Below are positions 29,991 to 46,546 of a stretch of 64,000 bases of DNA, in pieces. The stretch is from Bryobacterales bacterium. GTDB lineage: Bacteria; Acidobacteriota; Terriglobia; Bryobacterales; UBA6623. The DNA is taken from NCBI GenBank assembly GCA_963422375.2, contig OY729427.2, positions 544,001-608,000 of the forward strand, written 5' to 3'. The stretch's first letter is position 1. Each line of letters begins with the position of its first letter. The notes under the pieces are model-generated. The model was not told the origin of the DNA and ran no database searches. It was given only the letters and a program-made list of their open reading frames with translations. Both the position numbers and the translations under genes were made by a program.

Positions 29991-31040
29991 TCAGTCCGGG
30001 AACGGTCGCGCCTGAACCGCTTCGAGGAAGGCCGGATTCTGCCGCCGGAGGCGCAGCGAACGCTCCTTGGCCTCGCGAGCGCTGTCTCGGTCGCGCAGGC
30101 GGAAGTACACCTGCGAAAGCAGGAGATGCGGCTGCGGATGCCGCGGCTCGATGCGAACCGCCTCCCGGAGCACGCCGAGCGCATCGTCCCAGGTCCCGGC
30201 ACCCATCAGGGCCCGCGCCAATGCGATCCTGCCGGGCATGTAATCCGGACGGATGGCGATCGCTCGTCGGAGCGGCTCGAGAGCCTCTTCGTGCCGGGCC
30301 TGCCTCACCAGCCAGTCCCCGTAGAAGTAATGCGGCTCCTCGTAGTCCGGATCGAGCTCGATGGACTTGCGCAGCAGGGGCAGCGCCTCGTCGAACCGAC
30401 CGGTCCTCTGGAGGTGCCATGCCAGCTCGAAACTGGCGCGAGCCGAAACTGGAAAGCGCTTCGCGGCCCGGGCGGCGATTTCGAACCCGGCCGGCAAGTC
30501 GCCGGCCTCGCGGCAGGCGTGGATCGCCAAGTAGTACAGATCCTCGATCTCCGGCCGGAGGCGGAGCGCTCGCATGGAAACGTCGGCCGCCTCGCGCAGG
30601 TAGCGCCCCTTGCCGTATTCCACGGCCATGACCTGCATGAGCTGGTAGTGGTCCGGCTGGATCTCCAGAGCGCGACGCCAAGCGCGCAGGGCCTCGTCCG
30701 ACCGGTCGAGCTTGTGGCTGGCCGCCCCCAGCAGGTAGTGCGCGTTGAATTCGCCAGGCCCGGCCGAAGCGGCCCGGGACAGCAGGGGAATCGCCCTCTC
30801 GAAGAGTCCCGCCGAGAAATGCATGTACCCGAGATTGAACAGCGCGGGGAAGTATTCGGGAGCGACCTCCAGCGCCTGGCGCCAGAGGTCGGCCGCCGCA
30901 TCCGGCCGACCTTGCTGCGCAAGCTCCAAGCCGCGGTCGGTGAGCAGCCCGGGGCCGACCCCCGCTTGCCCGCCGGCCGCCGACGCGATCAGGAGACATG
31001 CCGCCAGCACTTTCGCGCCTGCGGCCAGCCGCGCCTTCAC
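29991..31040 (-). CDS. Secreted TPR protein
   Basis: Signal peptide and tandem TPR repeats; GTG 31040 overlaps the upstream TGA. Confidence 0.88.
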   Translation of the reverse strand: MKARLAAGAKVLAACLLIASAAGGQAGVGPGLLTDRGLELAQQGRPDAAADLWRQALEVAPEYFPALFNLGYMHFSAGLFERAIPLLSRAASAGPGEFNAHYLLGAASHKLDRSDEALRAWRRALEIQPDHYQLMQVMAVEYGKGRYLREAADVSMRALRLRPEIEDLYYLAIHACREAGDLPAGFEIAARAAKRFPVSARASFELAWHLQRTGRFDEALPLLRKSIELDPDYEEPHYFYGDWLVRQARHEEALEPLRRAIAIRPDYMPGRIALARALMGAGTWDDALGVLREAVRIEPRHPQPHLLLSQVYFRLRDRDSAREAKERSLRLRRQNPAFLEAVQARPFPD

Positions 31041-32779
31041 GGAGCCGCCTCGACCTTGCCGGATCCCTCTACCAGCAGCCATGCGCCGCCGGCGGCGGCG
31101 GGAAACTGCTCGCGCTCGCCGCTGGGCCAGAGCACCGTGATCCGCTCGACGCCCGCGGCACCGCCAAGTCCGAAATGCTGCCGCAGGTCGCTGTGGGAAA
31201 CGTAGCTCGACTGGCTCATCACGGCCCGGGTCTGGAGGCGGCCGCCGACCTCAACCGAGACGACGGAGCCGACGGCCGCACGATTGGAGAGGGTGCCACG
31301 CAACTGCAGGCGGATCCAGTTGGTTCCGGGCGGGAGGCCGTTGCGCAGCAGCGAGACGCGCTCCGCCATGTTCATCACGAGCACGTCCAGGTCCCCGTCA
31401 TCGTCGAAGTCGCCGAAAGCGGCCCCGCGGCTGGACCTGGCCTCGCGCAGGCCGCGGCCGGACAGCGCGGTCACGTCCTCGAAGCGCTTGCCCGCCAAGT
31501 TCCGGTAGACGAGGTTCGTCTGCGCGTAGGTCTCTGCGACCTTTGACTGGCGGTCTAGCTTCGGATAGACGTGACCGTTGACCTGGAAGAGGTCCTGCCA
31601 GCCGTCGTTGTCGAGATCAACGAGATCGACGCCCCAGCCCACGTACTGCGGATTCGACGCGAGGCCGGCCCGCACGCACATGTCCTCGAAGAACAGGCCG
31701 TCGGTGTTCCGGTACAGGTTCGGATAGTCGTCGGCGAAATTCGTCTTGACCAGATCCAGCCAGCCGTCCCCGTCGAAGTCGCCGACACCGACGCCCATGC
31801 CCCCCTGTTCGAAGCCGTGCTCGCTGAACGCCACGCCGGTCTCGGTGCCGTAGTCCGTGAAGGTCCCGTCGCCGTTGTTCACGAACAGAATGCTGGGCGT
31901 CGAGTCGCAGGCGATATAGATGTCCTGCCAGCCGTCGCCGTCAAAGTCCGCGGCCGCCGCCGTGAAGGCGTAATAGTCCCGCACCTCCCGCACGCCCGCG
32001 ACCTCGCTGACGTCCTCGAAGCGCCCGTCTCCCAAGTTCCGGTACAGGGTCACGCCGCCGAATGGCAGGCCTCTCGGCCCGCAATAGACCGGCATGCCCT
32101 TCCACTCGCAGTTCGACGTCTCGCCCGGCGGGGGCGCCGTGGTCGGGTCGAACTGCTGGTACTGCGTAACGAGCAGGTCGAGCAGCCCGTCCCTGTCGTA
32201 GTCGACGAACGTGCAACCCGAACTCCACTGGCCGGGAGCCCCGGCCACGCCGGCCTCGGTGGCGACCTCCCCGAAGCTCCCGTCGGCGCGGTTCCGATAC
32301 AGCGCGTCCTCGCCCCAGTAGCCGACGAACATGTCGAGGCCGCCGTCATTGTCGTAGTCGCCCGCGCACACCGCGCTGCCCCAGCCGGAGCGCCCGACGC
32401 CGCTCGCCACCGTGACGTCCTCGAACTTGCCGCCGCCCGCGTTGCGGTAGAGACGGCTGGTCGGGGCCTCGCCTGCGGGGAATCCTGCCAAGCTCGACCC
32501 GTTGACCAGGAAAGCATCCAGCCTGGAATCGCCGTCATAGTCCAGAAACGCCACGCCGGAACCGTTGGCCTCGATGATGTAGCTCTTCTCCTCGCGCCCG
32601 CCGTAGGTGAACTCGAGATCGAGACCCGCGTCCAAGGCGACGTCCGCGAACTTCGCCTTCCACGGCAGACCCGACAACTCCGGCGCCCTAACCGGCTGTG
32701 CGTTCGAGCTGGCGACGCCTTGGCCGAGCAGCGCCGAGGGGACCAGCAGGCAGAGCCACAGCAGCGACGGGACCAGCAT
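31037..32779 (-). CDS. CRTAC1-like FG-GAP repeat plus ASPIC/UnbV protein
   Basis: Repeated DYDxDGxxD motifs; SSRGAAFGDFDDDGD; SNRAAVG, HFGLG, V.WPSG. Confidence 0.92.
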   Translation of the reverse strand: MLVPSLLWLCLLVPSALLGQGVASSNAQPVRAPELSGLPWKAKFADVALDAGLDLEFTYGGREEKSYIIEANGSGVAFLDYDGDSRLDAFLVNGSSLAGFPAGEAPTSRLYRNAGGGKFEDVTVASGVGRSGWGSAVCAGDYDNDGGLDMFVGYWGEDALYRNRADGSFGEVATEAGVAGAPGQWSSGCTFVDYDRDGLLDLLVTQYQQFDPTTAPPPGETSNCEWKGMPVYCGPRGLPFGGVTLYRNLGDGRFEDVSEVAGVREVRDYYAFTAAAADFDGDGWQDIYIACDSTPSILFVNNGDGTFTDYGTETGVAFSEHGFEQGGMGVGVGDFDGDGWLDLVKTNFADDYPNLYRNTDGLFFEDMCVRAGLASNPQYVGWGVDLVDLDNDGWQDLFQVNGHVYPKLDRQSKVAETYAQTNLVYRNLAGKRFEDVTALSGRGLREARSSRGAAFGDFDDDGDLDVLVMNMAERVSLLRNGLPPGTNWIRLQLRGTLSNRAAVGSVVSVEVGGRLQTRAVMSQSSYVSHSDLRQHFGLGGAAGVERITVLWPSGEREQFPAAAGGAWLLVEGSGKVEAAP

Positions 32780-32921: not shown

Positions 32922-34778
32922 CTAGCCGACCGCCTCGGAGTCGGGCACGCTGGGCGAATCGCTCAGGGACAACTTGCCTCGGAGGACGACCTCGAAAGCG
33001 TGCTCCGTGGCCGCCTGCCGCTTGATGCGCCTTGACCCGTAGTCCGTGCCCTGCGCGTTGATCCGGTTTCCGAGGCTCCAACCGATGTCGGGTGCGCCGA
33101 CGGCCATGCGGGTGCTTCCATGGGCCTGATGGGCCATCACCGCCGCGGGCCAGCTCGCGCTTGGCGCCGACTGGCCCAGCGGCGTCTCGACCGATTCGTA
33201 GAAGGTGTAGTCCGTAACGCCGCGCGCCGGGAAGCTCGCCTGATGCATCCTGCCCGCTCGCACGACCCGGTGGTGGGCCGACGGATCGGCCGCCTGCTCC
33301 CGCAGCTTCTGCGCGCCTCGGTCTGCCGGGAAGAGCACGTACTCGTAGCTGTGCCCGTCGGGCGGATGACGTGATCGAGGAAGGCCTGCGCGTAGGCCCC
33401 CTCGTTCGGCTCGTACTCTTCCGACATGCTCTTCCGGATGCCATAGGCCGCCGCGAGATCCGCGGTGCTGCCCGCCCGGAAGTAGCTGTTTCCGACGCTG
33501 TCGTCCATCGCCGCCGTCCCCCTCGCTATCACTCGGATCGAGACCTCGAGACCGGTCAGCGAGATCCCGCCTAGCCCAGTGGCGGCTGCGGGGCCCGCGG
33601 ACGGGTCTGGAAGAGAGTCGTGTGCGTCTCGTCGGTCGGCGTGCGTCCGTGGATGTCCGTACCCACGGCCAGCACCCGATCCCCCGCGAAGCGCTAGGTC
33701 TTGCGCGCCCGCAGGTCGGTAGGGGCCGTAATGGACACGGCTTCCCAGTCATGGACGAAAGACCCGTGGTCACCGAGAGAGACACAGCCCACGAGCGTCT
33801 AGGTGCTGTAGCTGCGCTGCGGATGCTTGAGCTCGATTCCCTGGGATCTCTGGCGCACTTTCGAGTTGCCAGGGAGCGCTCTTCGATCGGATAATGGCTG
33901 GCCGTCGGGCCCGGCTCCTGGCACCAATCCCAGCCGTTGTCGAGATCGTGCCCGGAATCCGGCGCGCGGACGGGCGAGCCCGCGCTGAAACCCTGCAGGA
34001 CACCGTACGGCCAGTTCTGGACGAAGCTGTGCTCGAGGGTTCGAATCTGGCCATCGAAGTCCCAGAAGTTCTGTCTGAGTCCCCGCGCCGAAACCAGCCA
34101 GTCCGCGGGCCGGAAGAAGGCGGCCGCGGCGGTGGGCGTGATCCAGACTCCCTGGGGCGTCGGGGCGGCGGCGATGCCCGGTCCCGGCAGGTCCGCGACC
34201 AGCCGGTAGATCCCGAGGCCGCGAATCGGAGCCTGCACCTGCGCTCGAACTAGGCGCGGCTGCCGGGCTCCGGCCAGAAATGGCGGCGGCCGAAGAAGCT
34301 CGAGGAAGCGTGCCCTCATTGCGTCGTCGTTCGATCCGTCCGGATGCGCCCGGAAGGGCATGGCCTTGGAAACGGTCATGGTGGGCCTGTCGCCGTGGTC
34401 GCCGCGCTGCCGCCCTCGCAGGGCGCTGGTGACCGAGTACTTCTGCACCATCACCCGGTCGGCTTCAAGCGCGAGCTTGACCGCGGCGACGTTTCCTCCC
34501 GTATGGCCGGCTAGCCCCTGCGCCACGTAGAGCAACTCGGCGCACGACTCGGGCGCGAAGGGGCCACAAGCGCCCATGCAAGCCGACGCGTAGTGGAAGG
34601 TCGTGCCGTCGGGCTGGATGGCGCCCTGCGCGCCGGGCTTGGCAGCGACGTTCTGAGCGATCGCGCGGGAGAGGGCCGCCGACATCCTTCCGCGCTCGCC
34701 GGCGCCCTCGACCAGCAGGAAGTAGGGTGAGAAGTAGTCTACGAGGAGCCGCAAGGCGTCCGCATTCGAGCGACCCAA
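32922..34778 (-). pseudogene. Chondroitinase ABC-like (PL8) polysaccharide lyase remnant, 5'-truncated and frameshifted
   Basis: IQPDGTTFH, FFR..WLVSARG, GWDW..PG.T, HTTLFQ, DSVGNSY, AFLDH, SYEYVLFP distributed over several frames. Confidence 0.7.
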
Positions 34779-34971
34779 GCGCGGCGCGGCCGGAGGCCGC
34801 GATCAGGGATGCCCGCTGCGCGGGCTGCCGGAAACGGGGTGGCCAGCCTTGGCTGCCAGCGGGTCCGACTGTCGACCGCCCGATATCCAGAGCCGGGACC
34901 GTAGCACCATGCGGGGCCTTCGTCCGAGACTAGGCGCAAGCGTCGGATCGAAAGCGAGTAGAATGCAATCT

Positions 34972-37900
34972 GTGAGGGTGGCCGGTACGGCCCTGGCGGT
35001 GGCATGTGCGCTGGCCGCATGGGGCCAGAATCCGGAACATCGCTTCTATCCGAGCTACCAGCTGGAGCGACCGGTTGATCGCGTCCTAGCCAAGGCTCAC
35101 CCTAGTGCCGGCGATTGGGTCGGCGAGCGGGACTTCGCCGCGGTCGACGCTCAGCTGAAGAGGATTGCCCGGTCGCTGCTGGCGGATCGGAATTCCTTCA
35201 AGCCCCTCGCAACCGAGACGGAGCGCTTCAGCGAACTAGCCTTGGTCGAGTTCAAGATCCTCTCCACCTCGAGGAACGAAAACCAGCCGCCACTGGTGCG
35301 TTCCGCCGTCCGCATCGAACTGGGAGGCACGGCTGACGATGGCGGGCTGCTGTCGCGCCTCGCCACGGCGCAACTGACCTGGGCGGCGGACGAGGACGGC
35401 CTGGCTCTCCGCGACTTCGCCGTCGGCGACATCCGTGGCGGGCGTTCGAGCGCCTTCGGATTCGCGGAGGTGACGGACCAGGTATTCGGCGGGATCGAGT
35501 CCTTCCGGGAGCAGCTGGTCGCGGGCGTCGATCACTGGCGGGATTCCATCGACGCGGCAGCCGGAGTCACCGTGTACGGCCACCAAGGCCTGTCCCTCGG
35601 GGACTTCGACGGCGACGGACTGGACGACCTCTACGTCAGCCAGCCCGCCGGGCTGCCGAACCGCCTCTACCGCAACAACGGCGACGGGACCTTCTCCGAC
35701 GCCACTCGCCGGGCGGGCCTTGACATTCTCGACGACACTTCCATGTCGCTCTTCGGCGACGTGGACAGCGACGGAGACCAAGACCTGATCCTCGTGGGGC
35801 CGACTCCGCTGCTCTTTCGCAACGCGGGCGATGGGTCGTTCTCGCTGGACGGCAGCGCTGGCTTCGATTTGCCGGAAGAGAAGGCCGCCATGTTCACCGG
35901 AGCGGCGCTGGCGGACTACGACCTAGACGGGGACTTGGATCTTTACGTCTGCGCTTACGATTTCTGGCAGCCCGGGGCCCAGTACGACGCTCCTACGCCC
36001 TACTACGACGCTGTTAACGGTCCGCCGAACCTGCTGTTCCAGAACGACGGACAGGGCAGGTTCGAAGAGGTTGCCGCCCTGGCGGGCCTGCAGCCGACCA
36101 ACAATCGCTTCAGCTTCGCCGCCGCCTGGGCAGACTACGACAGCGACGGCGATCCCGACCTGTACGTGGCGAACGACTTCGGGCGCAACAATCTCTACCG
36201 CAACAACGGAGACGGCACCTTCGTGGAAGCAGCCGGCGAGCTCGGCGTAGAGGATCTTGGCGCGGGCATGTCCGCAGCGTGGGGCGACTATGATAACGAT
36301 GGTGACCTAGACCTGTACACCGCCAACATGTGGTCGTCGGCCGGCCTTCGGATCACGACGAGCCCGCAGTTCGACGCGGTCGCGCCTAGTGCGGCGGTGC
36401 GCGGTGACTTCAAGCGCCACGCGCAGGGCAATTCCCTGTTCCGCAACGACGGAGCACTTGGCTTTCGCGACGTGAGCGACGAGGCCGGGGTGCGCACGGG
36501 GCGCTGGGCCTGGGCGTCCGATTTCGTAGATTTGGACGGGGACGGCCTGCTGGATCTCTTCGTCCAGAACGGCTACATCACCGGCGAGAGCCTAGACGAC
36601 CTTTGAAGCTTCTTCTGGCGGCAGGTCGTGTCGCAATCCCCTCTTGGAGCCGAGGGCTCCAAGAGCTACGCCGAGGGATGGCGAGCGATCAATATCCTGA
36701 TTCGCTCCGACGGGTCTTGGAGCGGCAGGGAGCGCAACCTGTGCTTCCGCAACCGTGGAGACGGCACGTTCGATGACGCGTCCTTCACCAGCGGCCTCGA
36801 TCTGGATGCCGACGGCCGGGCGTTCGTCCCCTTGGACATCGACTCGGACGGGGATCTCGACCTGATCCTCAAGAACCGCAACGGACGCCAGCTGAGGGCG
36901 TTCCGCAACGACATGCGCCCCGGTCACACAAGGCAATTCTCCGTGCGGCTCGAGGGTCGGCGCAGCAACCGCGATGGCGTTGGCGGGAGGGTTTGGATCA
37001 CCACCGATCGACGCACCATGATGCGCGAGATCGCCTCGGGAAGCGGCTACCTGTCGCAGAGATCCCGCCGGGCCCGATTCGCGCTGTCTGAGGCGGAAGC
37101 GGTGCGAGGCGTGCAAGTCCGCTGGCCTCTAGGAGACGTGCAGGAGATCGCGTCTCCGCCGCAAGACGGGCATTTCGCTCTGGTCGAGGGCGATACGGCA
37201 TTCCGGGCGGAGGCTTCTCCGCAGTCGGCAATCGCAGTGCCGGAGCCGGCCCCAAGCTCGGGGCGGCAGGCGAGCCCCGGGGCGTGGCTCCTCGATCCGC
37301 CGCCCGCTCCCGACTTCGAGCTGAGAACCCTTGGCACGGGCGCCTCGGCGCGCCTGTCGGACCACCGGGGAGGCCCGGTATTGCTCAACTTCTGGGCTTC
37401 GTGGTGCCCGCCGTGCCGGACGGAGCTGGCCAGCTTCCAAGACCGAATGGAGGACTTTCGACGGATGGGGGTCGAAGTCGTCGCCGTCTCCCTAGACCAG
37501 CCCGAAACCGCCGAGGCCGCGAAGGATCTGGTGTCGATGCTGGGACTGGACTACAGCGTGCTGCTGGCTGACCCGCAGACGGCCGCAGCTTACAGCGTGC
37601 TGAACGAGCGCCTCTTCGACCGCCGCAGGGCGCTTGCAGTCCCAACGACATTCCTCTTGAACTCCGACGGCCGGATCGTGAAGGCGTATCGCGGCGAAGT
37701 CGATGCCGACGCGGTCATCGCCGACATCCGGGCTGGCAGCGGCGCCGCGCTTCCATTCGCCGGACGCTGGGCCGCGTCCGCGCCGGGCCGGGACTACGAG
37801 GAACTCGCCGCCGCGTTTGCGGAGCGAGGCCTAGGCGTTGCGGCGAGGTCGATGTTCGCCGAGGCGCTCGCGACCGGCGCCCGCTCGCCGGTCCTCCTGA

Positions 37901-38637
37901 ACAATTTCGCCGGCGCCCTGATAACGGACGGCGAAAAGCTGGAAGCGGAGCGGCTCCTGCGCGAAGCGCTGGCCAAGGCACCGGGCCTGACGGACGCAAA
38001 GGTCAACCTAGCGACCCTGCTAGTCGAGCGCGGGGACAGGGCAGAGGCCGTGCGGCTTCTCGAAGCGGCGCTGAACGAGCAGCCGAAGGACGGCCAAGCG
38101 CTCTCCGTTCTCGGAGCCGTCCGGTTCTCGGAGGGCAGGCTGGAGTCCGCGGAGACACTCTTCCGTCGGGCCGTGCAGACTCGTCCGGAGGAGGAGCGGT
38201 TTCGCGCCAACCTCGGAGCGGCGCTCGCGTCCCAAGGACGCTTCGCCGAGGCACTGCAAGAGTACGAGGCGGCAAGGCAACTCGGCGCGGAGAGCGCGGC
38301 CCTGCATACCAACCTAGCCGTGCTCTACATGCAGACGGGCCAACCCGGGAAGGCTCGGGAATACTTCCTGAAAGCGGCCGAGACGGATCCGGACGATCCG
38401 AGCGCACACCTGAACCTCGCTCGTTTCCTCCTCCAAGCGGGCGATGCCAAGCACGCCAAGGATTCGATCCGTCACGCGATGAATCGAGATCCACGAAGCT
38501 CGGCAGCGTTCGCCCTCTTGGCCCAAGCTCTCGCCATGCAAGGGCTAGTCGACCAAGCGCGAGAGGCGGCGGAAGAGGCGCTCCGCCATGATCCGAACTC
38601 GGCTGAGGCTGCTAGGATCATCGATTCGCTCGAGTAG
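34972..38637 (+). CDS. Candidate selenoprotein: signal peptide, FG-GAP propeller (in-frame UGA at codon 545), ASPIC/UnbV, TlpA-like thioredoxin (WCPPC), TPR; 1221 aa if read through
   Basis: ORFs 34849-36606 and 36628-38637 share one frame with one TGA (36604-36606): NGYITGESLDDL*SFFWRQVVSQSP. FG-GAP repeats continue after the stop, no SD is evident for the second part, and a SECIS-like hairpin follows. Confidence 0.7.
36618..36634 (+). promoter_or_regulatory. Putative bacterial SECIS hairpin
   Basis: Stem GCGGCA/TGTCGC (6 bp including one G-U) with loop GGTCG, starting 11 nt after the TGA; contains GCAGGTC as in the E. coli fdhF SECIS. Confidence 0.6.
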
Positions 38638-39700: not shown

Positions 39701-39847
39701 CGATTCCTCCCGCGACGTTGCCCAGTGAGACGACCAGAGATCTTCGCCCCCAGTACAGGTGCCAGCACGTGACCCTTCGATCCAACGACCATCATGCCTC
39801 GAGCGGCCCGCTAACGGCCCGTGCCGCACGCCGTAGCATACGAGCAG

Positions 39848-40873
39848 ATGAAGAGCCGGCCCAAGGCCGGGGGCGAGGCGCAGGTCACGGCCGAGAAGGA
39901 GGCCGCGCCCCGGCGCGTGGACTACGACGGGGCCTGCAAGGTCCTCTTCTCCACGGCGCGGATGGTGGTCGACCTGGTGCGCGGCTACGCCAGGGAACTC
40001 GATCTCGACGAGATCGACTACACGACCTTGGAGCCCGCGAGCCCCTCCTACCTCGGCGCGGAGGCCGTCAAGCGCTACGGGGACCTGCTGTGGAAGGTGC
40101 AAACGAAGGGCGGGCGGCCGGTGTACGTCCTCGTGCTGCTGGAGTTCCAGTCGAGCGTGCAGGACTACATGGCGGTGCGCCTGATGACCTACGTGGGCCT
40201 GCTGTACGAGTCGCTGTGCCAGCGGCAGGGGCTCCCCCCCGCTGCCCATCCTGGTGCCGGTGGTGCTGTACTGCGGCCGGAACAGGTGGACGGCCGCGGA
40301 CAGCGTGCGCCCGCTGGTGCTAGCCGAGCCGGCGGCCCTGGCGGGCTTCGTGCCGGGATTCCGCTACATTCTGATCGACGAGCGACGCTGCGAGCTGCTG
40401 GGCCTGGAGCAGCGCAACCTGGTGGACGCGATGATTCGCTGCGGGCGGGCGGCGTCGGCGCCGGCGGCGTCGGAAGAGGTGCTGCGCCTGCAGGAGTGGC
40501 TGCGGGGGGACGCGAACGCCGCGCTGCGGCGGGCCTTCGTGACCTGGCTCGACATCGTGCTGATTCGGCCGCAGTTCCCCGAAGTGAAGCTGAAGGCCGG
40601 AGACGGCCTAGCGGAGGTGGCGAAAGTGCTGGGAAGCTCTATGACTTGGATCGAGCAGGCGGAGACGAAGGGCCGCGCGAAGGGCCGCGAGGAGGCGCTG
40701 AGGGACACGTTCCAGCGAGTGGTCCGAAGCCGGTTCGGGGAACCCTTCGCCGAGGCCGTGGCTTCCCTGAGCCGGCCGTTCGAGTCGGGCGAGGCCTTTT
40801 CGCCCGAGCCTTGGACCGGGCCTACGGCTGCCGAAGCGAAGGCGAGCTCCTGTCCAAGCTGGCCACCCTCTGA
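39848..40873 (+). pseudogene. Rpn/YhgA-like PD-(D/E)XK nuclease, two frameshifts
   Basis: GDLLWKV, LLEFQSSVQDYMAVRLMTY, PVVLY.G..RW, KGRAKGREE; frame changes at the C7 run (40234-40240) and the T4 run (40797-40800). Confidence 0.85.
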
Positions 40874-43205: not shown

Positions 43206-43235
43206 TTGACACCAGCAGCGCTCACAATGTAGCGT
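43206..43235 (+). promoter_or_regulatory. Sigma70-type promoter with a possible LacI-family operator in the spacer
   Basis: TTGACA (43206-43211), 18 nt, TAGCGT (43230-43235); AGCGCTCACAAT at 43217-43228. Confidence 0.55.
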
Positions 43236-43303
43236 TGCTCGGAAGGGGGTCGGGTGCCGTTGCCGTTGGGCCGACCCCGAACGGCATAGGAGGTACTCCA
43301 TTC

Positions 43304-46300
43304 ATGCGCATTCGCCTCTTCCTGGCACTTGTCGCAATCGTGTCGCTGCCGCTGGCGGCCCAACAGTCCGGGCTGACCGGCGCCGTGACGGACACAACCG
43401 GCGCGGTGGTCGTAGGCGCCGACGTCACCTTGGTCAATTCGGATACCGGGGTCTTGCTCTCGGCGCAGACGAACGAGTCCGGGGCCTTCAATTTCACCCT
43501 AGTGCAGCCCGGCACGTACGAGCTGAGCTGCGAATCGGTGGGCTTCAAGACCTACCGTCTGTCGGGTCTCGTGATGGAAACGGGCCTTACCAAGACTGTG
43601 ACTGCGCAGCTCGAGATCGGGGAAATCACCGAGACGATCGAGGTGACCGGCTCGGCCCCGCTGCTCGAGACAGAGAACACCACGGTGGGGCAGTTCATCG
43701 AGCGCACCACGGTCGCGCAAATGCCGGTCGGCAGCAGGCAGGCAGGCCAGCTAATCAAGCTGGCCGGAAATGTCACCTTCGCCACGTCCGGCGGCGGACT
43801 CTACGACCTCCCATTCTTCTCGATGGCCGGCGGCCGCTCGCGCAACCAAATGTGGCACCTCGACGGCGGCGTCGTTCAGAACATGGCCCTCGGAATCGCC
43901 CAGCTCAACCTCAACCCGCCGGTGGAGTCGCTGCGCGAGTTCAAGGTGGAGTCGAACAACTACGCAGCGGAGTTCGGACGGACGGGTAACGGCCTAATCA
44001 TCATGAGCACCCGCTCGGGGACCAACGACATGCACGGGGCCCTCTATCACAACTTCCGCAACGACAAGCTAGACGCCCGCACGTTCTTCGCCCCCAGCAT
44101 CGCGCCGCTCCGCTACAACATCTTCGGCGGGTCGGCGGGCGGCCCGATCAAGCGCGACCGGACCTTCTTCTTCGTCAACTACGAAGGCCAACGCCGCAGC
44201 GACGGGGTCACGATCGCGAATACCGATGTCCCCCACGCGATCGAGGCCCGCGGCGACTTCTCCAATCGCTCCAGCTTCGCGCTCAAGGATCCTCTCACGG
44301 GCGAGGCATTCGAGAACAACGTCATCCCTCCAAGCCGCATCGATCCCCTCGGCAGAGCCTTCGTCGGCCTGTACCCCGAGCCGAACGCCGCCAGCCCGCT
44401 GTCCTCCGCCCCACGCGACAACTTCGTCAAGAACGTCGCCAACCGCGGCGTGTCCGACTTCACCACCGTCAAGGTCGATCACAACTTCGGCCCGAGCGAC
44501 CGGATCTCCAGTCGCTTCAGCTACGTGTCCGCACCCGCCCAGCCCGAGCCGGTCTACCCGAACAAGTTCGCGGACTTCCGCGCCTCGGATCAGACCCGCT
44601 CGAATCTGGTGTCCACGTCGACCTGGAATCACAACTTCACGACCACGATGGTCAACGAGTTCCGCTACACCTTCGGCAACCGCACTTTCACCACCCGCGG
44701 ACTGGGAACCAACAGCGGCAAGAACGGCGAGCTCGGCGTGCCGAATGTCGACCCAGAGTTCTTCGCCACGGTGAATGTCACGGGCTACACGCGCTTGGGC
44801 GCGGGCAACCAAGAGCGCATTCAGAAGCCGATCCGGACCCACCAAGTCGTCAACAACACCTCATGGTTCAAGGGCGACCACAGCGTCAAGTGGGGCATCG
44901 AGTACCGCTACTCGCGCAACCAAGACGATTTCAACCAGTTCGCCGGCGGCAGCTTCAGCTTCAACAACCGCGTGACCGGTGACGGCATTGCGCAGCTTCT
45001 TCTCGGCTGGACTACGCGCGGACAGCTCGTCGACACGGACATCCTCAATACTCGCAGCGACTACTGGGGAGTGTACTTGCAGGACAGCTGGAAGTTGACG
45101 GACAGATTGACTCTCAACTTCGGCCTGCGCTGGGACCTGGACACGCCTCGCTGGGAACTCAGCAACAACCAGAGCGGGTTTGACCCGGGCCAAATCAACC
45201 CGGTATGCGATTGCTCGGGCGTGATGCTCTTTTCGGGCCGCAACGGCCGCGACAAGTACGCGCACGCCTTCGACGGCAATAACTTGGGACCGCGCGTCGG
45301 CCTCGCCTACAAGGCGACGGATTCGACCGTCGTCCGAGCCGGCTTCGGCGTGAACTACAACGGAGCGTACGCCCGCGCCGTCCCGTTCACGCAGTTCTGG
45401 ACGTTTTCCCGCACTCTGGACATCAACTCACCCGACGGCGGGTTCACGCCGGCCTTCATGCTCAGCGACGGCCTTCCCGCCGTCGATCCGTTCACCGAGG
45501 AGGACAGGGTCGGCACGTTCGGGGCTACGATGAGCGGGCGCCGCACCGTCTCGCCGGATTTCATCCAGCAGAACCAGCAGAACGGCTACTCGCAGCAGTG
45601 GAACCTGACACTGCAGAAGCAACTGCCCAATAGCGTGTTGCTCGAGGCGCAGTACCAAGCAAACGTCGGTCACAGCCTCGGAGGCCCGAACTACAACTAC
45701 AACATGATCCCTCTCGTCGTCGGCCGGGGGCCCGAGCGGCAGAGCCAGAACCTGCGTCTCTTCCCGCACTACAACAGCGTCGTCATCGAGAGCCCGGACT
45801 GGGGCAATTCGACCTACCATTCGCTCAACCTGAAAGCCGAGAAGCGCTTCTCCAGTGGTCTCAGCTACCTCTTCAACTACACGTGGTCCAAGTTCATCGA
45901 CGACGTAGAGTCGGCCAACGAGCTCGGCGGCGAGCAGAACAACGGCTACACGCACTACCAGCTGCGCCATCTGGACAAGGCCCTGTCGGGCAACGACATC
46001 CGGCACCGGCTCGTAGCGAGCGGGGTCTACGAGCTGCCCGTCGGCCGCAACAAGCCGCTTGCGATCGAAAATGCCGCGCTGGACGCGCTGATCGGAGGCT
46101 GGAGCCTCGGGGTAATCGCCGAGTTCCGCAGCGGCTCGCCCTTCGGAATCATTGAGCAGACCAACCGGAGCAACACGTTCAGCCACGGGCAGCGCCCGAA
46201 CGTGCTCGGCGACCCGGTCCTCGCCGGCGGCCGATCGAAGTCTGATCGATTGGTGCGGTGGTTCGACACGTCGAAATTCGAGGCTCCCGGAGCCGGCGCA

Positions 46301-46546
46301 TTCGGCAACTCGCCGCGCAACATCTGCTGCGGGCCGGGCTTCGCAGTCGTCGACGTCTCGATCCAGAAGCGGTTCCGGCTGTCGGAAAAGGGGCGACTGG
46401 AGTTCCGCGCGGACTTCTTCAACTTCACGAATCACGCCAATTTCGGAATCCCGGAACGCCGTCGCGGCAATTCCGGTTTCGGCAGGATTCGAGGCACCAT
46501 CGGCACGGGACGGCAGGCGCAGCTCGGTCTCCGCATCGAGTTCTAG
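43304..46546 (+). CDS. TonB-dependent receptor, Oar-like with carboxypeptidase-regulatory N-domain
   Basis: AGGAGG SD; signal peptide; GAVTDTTGAVV, EFKVESNNYAAEFG, TRSGTN, YLQDSWK, terminal QLGLRIEF. Confidence 0.95.
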   Translation: MRIRLFLALVAIVSLPLAAQQSGLTGAVTDTTGAVVVGADVTLVNSDTGVLLSAQTNESGAFNFTLVQPGTYELSCESVGFKTYRLSGLVMETGLTKTVTAQLEIGEITETIEVTGSAPLLETENTTVGQFIERTTVAQMPVGSRQAGQLIKLAGNVTFATSGGGLYDLPFFSMAGGRSRNQMWHLDGGVVQNMALGIAQLNLNPPVESLREFKVESNNYAAEFGRTGNGLIIMSTRSGTNDMHGALYHNFRNDKLDARTFFAPSIAPLRYNIFGGSAGGPIKRDRTFFFVNYEGQRRSDGVTIANTDVPHAIEARGDFSNRSSFALKDPLTGEAFENNVIPPSRIDPLGRAFVGLYPEPNAASPLSSAPRDNFVKNVANRGVSDFTTVKVDHNFGPSDRISSRFSYVSAPAQPEPVYPNKFADFRASDQTRSNLVSTSTWNHNFTTTMVNEFRYTFGNRTFTTRGLGTNSGKNGELGVPNVDPEFFATVNVTGYTRLGAGNQERIQKPIRTHQVVNNTSWFKGDHSVKWGIEYRYSRNQDDFNQFAGGSFSFNNRVTGDGIAQLLLGWTTRGQLVDTDILNTRSDYWGVYLQDSWKLTDRLTLNFGLRWDLDTPRWELSNNQSGFDPGQINPVCDCSGVMLFSGRNGRDKYAHAFDGNNLGPRVGLAYKATDSTVVRAGFGVNYNGAYARAVPFTQFWTFSRTLDINSPDGGFTPAFMLSDGLPAVDPFTEEDRVGTFGATMSGRRTVSPDFIQQNQQNGYSQQWNLTLQKQLPNSVLLEAQYQANVGHSLGGPNYNYNMIPLVVGRGPERQSQNLRLFPHYNSVVIESPDWGNSTYHSLNLKAEKRFSSGLSYLFNYTWSKFIDDVESANELGGEQNNGYTHYQLRHLDKALSGNDIRHRLVASGVYELPVGRNKPLAIENAALDALIGGWSLGVIAEFRSGSPFGIIEQTNRSNTFSHGQRPNVLGDPVLAGGRSKSDRLVRWFDTSKFEAPGAGAFGNSPRNICCGPGFAVVDVSIQKRFRLSEKGRLEFRADFFNFTNHANFGIPERRRGNSGFGRIRGTIGTGRQAQLGLRIEF

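Follow-up and report, generated by a model that had tools for sequence, protein, structure and literature searches.

Introduction

In the Escherichia coli gene fdhF, the coding sequence itself contains, downstream of an in-frame UGA, a short stem-loop that serves as selenocysteine insertion sequence (SECIS); its upper hairpin is reportedly the minimal functional element. The same arrangement recurs in a gene on the forward strand of a 64,000-nucleotide stretch of DNA from a Bryobacterales bacterium (GenBank assembly GCA_963422375.2, contig OY729427.2, positions 544,001 to 608,000; hereafter the window, in whose own numbering plain coordinates are given), where two called genes lie in one frame that is interrupted by TGA at 36604–36606. 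Comparison with homologous genes indicates that this TGA is very probably a selenocysteine (Sec) codon and that the two called genes are one protein. An earlier examination of the letters of the window (the sequence-only reading) had proposed such a selenoprotein and had likened its signal to that of fdhF, a comparison that holds on the E. coli K-12 record: the stem begins 11 nt after the UGA in both genes, and the heptamer GCAGGUC lies at +16 to +22 in fdhF and at +15 to +21 here, with GGUC in the loop. The two systems differ in that the loop is 4 nt in fdhF and 5 nt here, the lower stem of fdhF has no counterpart at this locus, and the products are unrelated, fdhF specifying a molybdopterin enzyme and the window gene a propeller protein.

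The consensus for bacterial SECIS elements given in PMC13188914 comprises a UGA-to-loop distance of 16–37 nt, a loop of 3–9 nt, a stem of 4–16 bp, a G in the first two loop positions, and a minimum free energy (MFE) of −7.5 kcal/mol or below. The hairpin in the window has a UGA-to-loop distance of 17 nt, a loop of 5 nt beginning with GG, a stem of 6 bp, and an MFE of −8.7 kcal/mol when one flanking base is included on each side, in agreement with that consensus.

On the protein side, the pairing of Sec with thioredoxin-fold CxxC-type chemistry is described as the commonest theme among bacterial selenoproteins (PMC13188914). In the thioredoxin-fold selenoproteins of that source, Sec lies inside the motif (UxxC, CxxU, or UGC), whereas in the window protein the motif is all-Cys and Sec lies ∼267 residues upstream of the CxxC, in a different fold. 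The best solved match to the predicted structure of the window protein is murine CRTAC1 (PDB 9etn_A), which likewise combines a propeller with an UnbV_ASPIC domain and with which the model appears to share this body over 601 aligned columns (Foldseek E 3.1e-27; template modeling [TM] score 0.69, normalized by the target). Identity is only 19%, and CRTAC1 has neither the thioredoxin-fold part, nor the TPR part, nor Sec; in a phmmer comparison, 9etn_A aligned to residues 1–54 and 184–323 of the query only and not to the stretch containing Sec. The thioredoxin-fold domain of the model is predicted to resemble ResA (2f9s_A, TM score 0.89, root-mean-square deviation [rmsd] 1.6; ResA chains overall, TM score 0.85–0.89 and rmsd 1.6–2.0, normalized by the target). 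As in ResA and TlpA, its CxxC lies at the N terminus of a helix, with the difference that here the fold is one domain inside a 1221-residue protein. Scores against the NCBIfam models for ResA (75.5 bits; cut-off 170) and TlpA (58.4 bits; cut-off 230) are both below cut-off, placing the kinship at the level of fold and motif only.

Results

A single TGA interrupts one long reading frame

The gene and its candidate recoding elements are as follows.

34963..38637, + strand: whole gene read through the TGA, from ATG 34963 (the start in the public gene call) to the stop codon TAG at 38635–38637
36604..36606, + strand: UGA, very probably read as selenocysteine (Sec545, or Sec548 counted from ATG 34963)
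36618..36634, + strand: candidate SECIS hairpin, with arms at 36618–36623 and 36629–36634 and the loop GGUCG at 36624–36628

Translation of 34972–38637 showed codon 545 to be the sole stop before the terminal TAG, and the two mechanically defined open reading frames (34849–36606 and 36628–38637) share one frame, as the sequence-only reading had stated. The codons at 36598–36633 are GAC CTT TGA AGC TTC TTC TGG CGG CAG GTC GTG TCG, followed by CAA. In the public gene call the upstream half is a protein of 547 residues (P0129) starting at ATG 34963, three codons before the start chosen earlier, and the downstream half is a protein of 669 residues (P0124) starting at GTG 36628, which is the Val codon inside the hairpin. 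The gene has 1224 codons from ATG 34963 and 1221 from GTG 34972; the earlier description of a 1221-residue protein with Sec545 is accordingly correct from the latter start and gives way to 1224 codons and Sec548 from the former. Residue numbers in this work count from 34972. Orthologues have a stop just upstream of the gene start, their upstream open frames being 542–544 codons long. TGA is an ordinary stop in the host genome, where it ends 1951 of 3809 long frames.

An assembly error is excluded as the origin of the TGA, given that contigs from four public runs span the site with zero differing letters, none showing a sense codon, and that the TGA is conserved in other species. The four runs stem from two studies and at most four samples, one of which is possibly the source of the assembly. 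At 36595–36635 the contigs of all four runs were observed to break, with loose ends that match the upstream sequence of the paralogues; the TGA-plus-hairpin stretch is an exact repeat of ∼30 nt in the three copies of the gene in this genome, long enough to split de Bruijn assemblies.

The TGA is conserved across genomes and both flanking halves appear to be under selection

A search with 343 residues around the break against 40 related genomes recovered, in 23 of the 24 other genomes of the same genus, an orthologue with exactly one TGA at 73–81% identity. One TGA was likewise present in further matches of ∼50–54% identity, which came from a second group of paralogues and from one genome of a different family. 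Tabulation of the aligned column (the x of DL-x-SFFW), which the sequence-only reading had put forward as a check, gave TGA in 42 of 71 homologous loci from the genus and its relatives, the remaining codons being TGC (19), TGT (1), GGC (3), AAC (2), ATG (2), and GAG (2); the 20 TGC or TGT loci, that is, Cys at the Sec column, belong to one same-genus paralogue group. In an evenly drawn sample of 301 genomes of the phylum, with homologues accepted at E ≤ 1e-30, a homologue was present in 77 genomes, and one TGA was found in 66 of 106 rows outside the window's own genome, from 50 genomes. Direct inspection of the aligned column in 48 of these loci showed TGA in 15 of 28 and in 20 of 20. The phylum tallies include three unpublished genomes, one with a TGA form (G089) and two with non-TGA forms (G192 and G064), without which the 50 TGA genomes become 49 and nothing else of substance changes; the G089 locus was left out of all alignments and trees. 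Among named public genomes, 79 loci were found and the column could be aligned in 67, yielding TGA forms in Acidobacteriota (3), Planctomycetota (7), Verrucomicrobiota (14, one of them doubtful), and an unclassified bacterium (1). The doubtful form, L233, was scored as TGA by the column script and lacks the peptide motif and the hairpin; it was treated as misaligned.

Substitution patterns were compared between the window gene and 23 orthologues. The ratio of nonsynonymous to synonymous divergence (dN/dS) was 0.177 upstream and 0.220 downstream of the TGA, at a dS of ∼1.3–1.4, indicating that both halves are under purifying selection and hence translated. All TGA forms examined continue in the same frame beyond the TGA, and the downstream half is open for ∼676 codons in the orthologues.

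These data bear on two readings in which the UGA is a true stop. The first is a recent pseudogene, with the TGA as a nonsense mutation and the downstream frame in decay. A single base change converts TGG, TGC, or TGT to TGA, and one paralogue in the same genome (C1:944267–945252) is truly decayed, with a frameshift and a truncation; set against this are the identical TGA column in three phyla, the low downstream dN/dS, and the long open frame of the orthologues. Such conservation already refutes a pseudogene, the probability of which we regard as negligible.

The second reading holds that translation stops at the TGA and that a second protein starts at GTG 36628. Gene callers do return two proteins here, and among the best 120 rows of shorter proteins in the protein collection they likewise return ∼24 N-terminal and ∼56 C-terminal orthologue halves (64–86% identity), many of them on long contigs. 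The supposed start, however, is the Val codon within the hairpin, and the split would cut through a propeller that is predicted to be one body both in the structural model and in its match to CRTAC1. Moreover, homologues without the TGA are single chains of ∼1180–1300 residues. Together with the frame kept across the TGA, these points leave two separate genes very improbable. The sequence-only reading had named a TGA unique to this strain, and homologues split at this point with an independent start and no conserved hairpin, as outcomes that would tell against it; the TGA proved to be widespread, and the homologues keep the frame, the selection on both halves, and the hairpin.

The hairpin downstream of the TGA covaries and appears to be selected as RNA

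The hairpin was placed 11 nt after the UGA by the sequence-only reading, and it is found there, at 36618–36634, with a spacer of 11 nt (36607–36617) and a stem of 6 bp. It was returned by ViennaRNA from the single sequence and, unprompted, by RNAalifold from 27 homologues. Stem pairing is 100% in the 42 TGA genes of the genus and its relatives (240 cells) and 96.6% in 76 TGA genes including distant clades (73 distinct; 438 cells). As a control, sliding the partner by 1–3 columns in the 76 genes lowered pairing to 17.6–67.4%. Pairing is maintained through compensatory changes, as had been proposed as a test: pair 18–28 is GU in 38 of the 76 genes, CG in 18, GC in 8, AU in 6, and UA in 2, and the verrucomicrobial locus L223 is compensated at two more pairs, with A-U at pair 16–30 and G-C at pair 20–26. 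The covariation score of the 76 genes was 0.245 as compared with 0.110 in shuffles, a score reached by none of 500 shuffles.

Within the loop, G22 and U23 are invariant in all 76 TGA genes. The bases on either side, loop positions 21 and 24 (window positions 36624 and 36627), co-vary: of 40 distinct rows, 32 combine G with C and 7 combine A with U, and some members of the distant clade combine C with G. This co-variation recalls the pair N1/N2 of the published loop pattern, from which the spacing differs by one, two bases lying between the partners here.

The sequence-only reading had cautioned that the hairpin, which encodes WRQVVS, could be a by-product of protein conservation. The caution is not borne out by the 23 same-genus paralogues without a TGA (20 Cys, 3 Gly): with a near-identical peptide, they pair at only 66.7%. 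The codons themselves differ accordingly. The Arg at +5 is CGG in 38 and CGA in 4 of the TGA genes, as compared to CGC (7), AGG (4), CGG (4), CGT (4), and AGA (1) in the 20 Cys forms, and the Val at +8 is GTG in 42 of 42 TGA genes versus 15 of 20 Cys forms. Codon entropy across 24 orthologues was 0.203 bits for the eight degenerate codons that follow the TGA, the lowest value of 248 codon blocks compared, versus 1.183 bits at the other 247 invariant degenerate codons. Conservation, compensatory changes, and frozen synonymous sites thus indicate that the hairpin is selected as RNA.

Two further structures in the vicinity were considered and set aside. Just downstream of the candidate SECIS, a perfect inverted repeat (36641–36665; 11 bp, loop of 3 nt) dominates the single-sequence fold and is probably incidental, since it is not kept in orthologues. 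A mini-hairpin over the UGA itself (columns 2–5 with 9–12) was returned by RNAalifold from 27 close sequences and is lost in the distant clade.

The host genome encodes selenocysteine machinery and a second gene with a similar element

The genes for Sec incorporation, which the sequence-only reading had suggested looking for, are all present in the host genome, with selA (418.2 bits), selB (345.6 bits; cut-off 242.25), and selD (299.7 bits) over their cut-offs and a tRNA-SeC with the anticodon tca. The open frame that contains the selD match (G000:C1:1374433–1375347) runs to 779 codons, well beyond the length of a plain SelD, and may encode a fusion protein. The host genome (G000) also contains a second gene with an in-frame TGA.

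G000:C2:2609581 (first base of the TGA), − strand: FdhA-like gene L107, in-frame TGA followed by a 6-bp stem

In this gene, for an FdhA-like molybdopterin oxidoreductase, the TGA occupies the standard T-U-H-x-P-S site and is followed after 12 nt by a 6-bp stem with the loop GGUCU, which is the design of the window hairpin placed one base further off. Other frames or loci in the vicinity contain the N-terminal portion of the family match, and a blastn search with the FdhA-like region against E. coli genomes gave no match.

Across genomes, selA was found in all 24 other genomes of the genus and in 236 of the 301 genomes of the phylum sample, so that its co-occurrence with the TGA form is a weak test. 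Among the 50 TGA-bearing genomes of that sample, selA was found in 47, and the remaining 3 have selB over the cut-off and a tRNA-Sec over the gathering score. In a related genus, four genomes without selA have homologues whose column encodes S, G, A, and A in place of the TGA.

The comparative data show recoding and not the identity of the inserted residue, which speaks for considering a selenium-free read-through, in which a near-cognate tRNA (Trp, Cys, or Arg) decodes the UGA with the help of the hairpin. Several features argue against this explanation, namely the design that the hairpin has in common with the element of the genome's own FdhA-like gene, the GCAGGUC shared with E. coli fdhF, the Sec machinery in every TGA-bearing genome tested, and the substitution of the TGA in the four selA-less genomes; we consider it highly unlikely. 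Because the UGA is conserved, the hairpin is conserved and covaries, Sec machinery is present, and both halves are under selection, a recoding signal is demonstrated by comparison, and selenocysteine remains by far the most probable reading of the codon.

Domain architecture and predicted structure

Pfam searches with the read-through protein found every domain of the layout given by the sequence-only reading (FG-GAP, ASPIC/UnbV, thioredoxin with WCPPC, and TPR), arranged as follows.

34972..35028, + strand: predicted signal peptide, residues ∼1–19, with a cleavage-type motif A-W-G before Q
35590..36903, + strand: FG-GAP beta-propeller, CRTAC1-like, residues ∼207–644 (Pfam FG-GAP_3, 147.1 bits; FG-GAP, 54.5 bits)
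36601..36705, + strand: predicted helical insert in the propeller, residues ∼544–578, three helices
36976..37164, + strand: UnbV_ASPIC domain, residues 669–731 (Pfam PF07593, 49.7 bits; cut-off 23.4)
37303..37704, + strand: ResA/TlpA-like thioredoxin-fold domain, residues 778–911 (Pfam AhpC-TSA, 88 bits; Redoxin, 70.6 bits)
37405..37416, + strand: putative active site C812-P-P-C815 (WCPPC) within the ResA/TlpA-like domain
37915..38616, + strand: C-terminal TPR repeats, residues ∼982–1215 (several Pfam TPR families)

The N-termini of 15 orthologues, read by eye, have a short basic start, a hydrophobic run, and A-x-A or A-x-G before Q, suggesting a Sec-type signal peptide and an exported protein. 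The N-terminal region that follows the signal peptide matched no family. FG-GAP_3 matched in six stretches, the FG-GAP and UnbV_ASPIC matches both exceed the Pfam cut-offs, and the NCBIfam TPR families were scored below their cut-offs.

An AlphaFold2 model was built for residues 190–930, with Sec read as Cys, from a 27-row alignment (mean predicted local distance difference test [pLDDT] 83.7; predicted TM score 0.86). Secondary structure assignment with DSSP placed the helices of the insert at model residues 355–362, 364–369, and 375–389. Sec is model residue 356 and would lie in the first turn of the helix 355–362, at the start of an insert (355–389) between blades; the model thereby departs from the sequence-only reading, which had put Sec on a propeller loop. 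The CPPC is predicted at the N terminus of helix 624–635, so that in the model Sec and the CPPC each occupy the N terminus of a helix. The short paralogue at 31037–32779 (− strand), which had been cited as holding the propeller and the ASPIC domain in one chain, does so according to Pfam (FG-GAP and UnbV_ASPIC in 580 residues), and it lacks the three-helix insert.

Association of Sec with the CxxC domain

In a MAFFT alignment of 57 full-length homologues, W-C-x-x-C is present at the thioredoxin-fold site in 39 of 39 Sec forms, as compared with a CxxC in 1 of 18 others. With named genomes added (109 rows), a CxxC is present in 58 of 58 full-length Sec forms versus 1 of 51 non-Sec forms. Of the conserved Cys and Sec columns, only three (U545, C812, and C815) distinguish the Sec forms. 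Some non-Sec forms retain the fold with a degenerate site (for example, lacking one or both Cys), and in the rest no such domain is detectable. Such a distribution is consistent with joint action of Sec and the CxxC, without proving it.

Several observations weigh against selenocysteine at this codon or against its partnership with the CxxC. Folding energy is one: the bare 17-mer narrowly misses the consensus limit (MFE −7.3 against −7.5 kcal/mol), and 106 of 200 shuffled sequences fold at least as well as the element (z +0.17), so that its energy does not stand out from chance. The energy is therefore not the evidence; the element of the genome's own FdhA-like gene is likewise unremarkable (z −0.24) and that of E. 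coli fdhF nearly so (z −1.56). What exceeds chance for the hairpin is conservation and covariation. A search of 36550–36750 against Rfam at E ≤ 10 returned two chance-level matches only (E 4.9 and 9.9). At the Sec column, homologues without the TGA mostly have N, S, E, M, A, G, or D in place of Cys. No thioredoxin-fold domain is detectable in the same-genus Cys paralogue, so that the usual functional Sec/Cys pair exists here only formally; this paralogue is a descendant within a clade from which the redox site was lost, not a working Cys version. No UxxC or CxxU motif adjoins Sec, and block pLDDT around the Sec insert is only 64–76. In addition, the counts for Sec and CxxC are not phylogenetically independent. 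In a FastTree phylogeny of the propeller part (57 rows), 17 of 18 non-Sec forms make up one clade (support 95), and the tree contains two changes of Sec state and one of CxxC state; the 109 rows contain four and three, respectively. Three independent pairs gave two differences in the same direction and one of no difference (sign test, p 0.5). The counts thus overstate the case, with few independent evolutionary events (3–4) behind them. Of the self-contained redox relay proposed by the sequence-only reading, the co-occurrence of Sec and CxxC stands, and its weight is reduced by that small number.

A different role for Sec would be that of a metal ligand, with the TlpA-like domain keeping the selenol reduced for metal loading; this would rival the mechanism and leave the decoding as it is. 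FG-GAP propellers carry loops of the DxDxDG type, which are reported to bind Ca. No resolving Cys adjoins Sec, and the structural matches of the fused domain include TlpA in complex with either the copper chaperone ScoI or cytochrome oxidase subunit II (4txo, 4txv). On the other side, no metal-binding family was matched in the Pfam and NCBIfam scans, and no second conserved ligand was seen near Sec. A metal-binding Sec therefore appears unlikely, without being far-fetched. For the selenol as an extracytoplasmic redox-active site recycled by C812 and C815 of the fused domain, by comparison, we judge the chances to be about evenly balanced.

Paralogues and gene neighborhood

Two further copies of the gene were located in the host genome.

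G000:C2:3297228–3301244, − strand: intact second Sec paralogue L014, with its TGA at ∼C2:3299313–3299315, ∼52% identity
G000:C1:944267–945252: decayed third copy L016/L017, with a frameshift between 944491 and 944500 and a 4-residue gap

In the intact paralogue the TGA stands at the same column, the 30 nt of the hairpin stretch are identical, and the thioredoxin-fold domain contains WCAPC. The decayed copy is open for only 224 codons after the TGA, and its TGA and perfect hairpin are still present.

Downstream of the Sec gene, at a distance of 4.6 kb, lies a TonB-dependent-receptor-like gene with CarboxypepD_reg and OMP_b-brl_4 matches (43235–46546, + strand), separated from it by a YhgA-like transposase open reading frame (39821–40873) and another open reading frame. 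An orthologue of the OMP_b-brl_4 gene (83–87% identity) adjoins the Sec gene, on either side, in three of six orthologous loci (L160, L164, and L165). Upstream and divergent, an open reading frame of 618 residues (32922–34778, − strand) has a weak polysaccharide-lyase match (27.7 bits); neither it nor the short paralogue at 31037–32779 is kept beside the Sec gene in the six orthologous loci. Since only the outer-membrane barrel gene is kept among the neighbors, no operon-based function is proposed.

Discussion

The gene belongs to what is essentially an undescribed family of ordinary SelB/SECIS selenoprotein genes. Table 1 of PMC13188914, a 2026 list of 119 prokaryotic selenoprotein families, has no FG-GAP, ASPIC, CRTAC1, or propeller entry. 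The main text of deep-Sep (PMC12013277) names no FG-GAP, ASPIC, CRTAC1, propeller, or VCBS family, and the same families are absent from the main text of BSepDB (PMC13326102), a scope that excludes its Table S2 of known families, which may bear on the point. A literature search, within the sources it covered, returned no relevant report tying a selenoprotein to FG-GAP or selenocysteine to ASPIC. No NCBIfam family matched the 343 residues around Sec, and in the protein collection no full-length relative above 52% identity is among the best 120 rows; neither these rows nor the best 120 shorter proteins show a name that says selenoprotein. The nearest precedent is in Table S9 of Kim et al. 2016 (PLoS One, PMC4807772), where four unnamed candidates have the same domain description; each is annotated as a pair of genes and contains an in-frame UGA, and bSECISearch identified a SECIS in three of the four. 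They appear as four bare table rows in a paper whose main text does not mention ASPIC or FG-GAP. The present search found TGA forms of the family in Planctomycetota also, and the candidates may belong to the same family, the match being by description. The statement of the sequence-only reading that the family is uncharacterized thus holds insofar as no characterized family was found, and is qualified by these listed candidates.

Directed by an fdhF-type hairpin 11 nt downstream and inside the frame, SelB and tRNA-Sec very probably decode the UGA at 36604–36606, and the product is then one exported protein of ∼1221–1224 residues. The N terminus of a helix is the position of the reactive residue in many redox proteins, and a selenol so placed could react with an oxidized substrate outside the cytoplasm. 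C812 would then attack the oxidized selenium and C815 would resolve the intermediate, leaving a disulfide that might be re-reduced via a membrane route of the DsbD/CcdA type; one gene of the DsbD_TM family (62 bits) is present in the genome.

For annotation, the consequence is that a large family of exported proteins is systematically cut in two, in the window into 547 and 669 residues and likewise in dozens of orthologues. Because the gene is split, counts of proteomes, pangenomes, and domain architectures are wrong at this locus in these soil and aquatic phyla. The 30-nt stretch of UGA plus hairpin is near-identical across three phyla, and this frozen stretch could serve directly to find and repair gene calls.

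For the biology of the family, a Sec that lies outside the thioredoxin-fold motif, with an all-Cys CxxC fused behind it, offers a test case for the recycling of a selenol outside the cytoplasm. It is also a possible first functional handle on bacterial CRTAC1-like proteins, for which no assigned function was found. We tentatively entertain, while placing the balance of probability somewhat on the other side, that Sec on the helix of the propeller insert is the catalytic center of a new class of exported selenoenzymes with its own ResA/TlpA-like recycling domain in Acidobacteriota, Planctomycetota, and Verrucomicrobiota. If this is true, these bacteria would possess a selenium active site that acts on an extracytoplasmic substrate and is built on a fold so far unlisted among selenoproteins.

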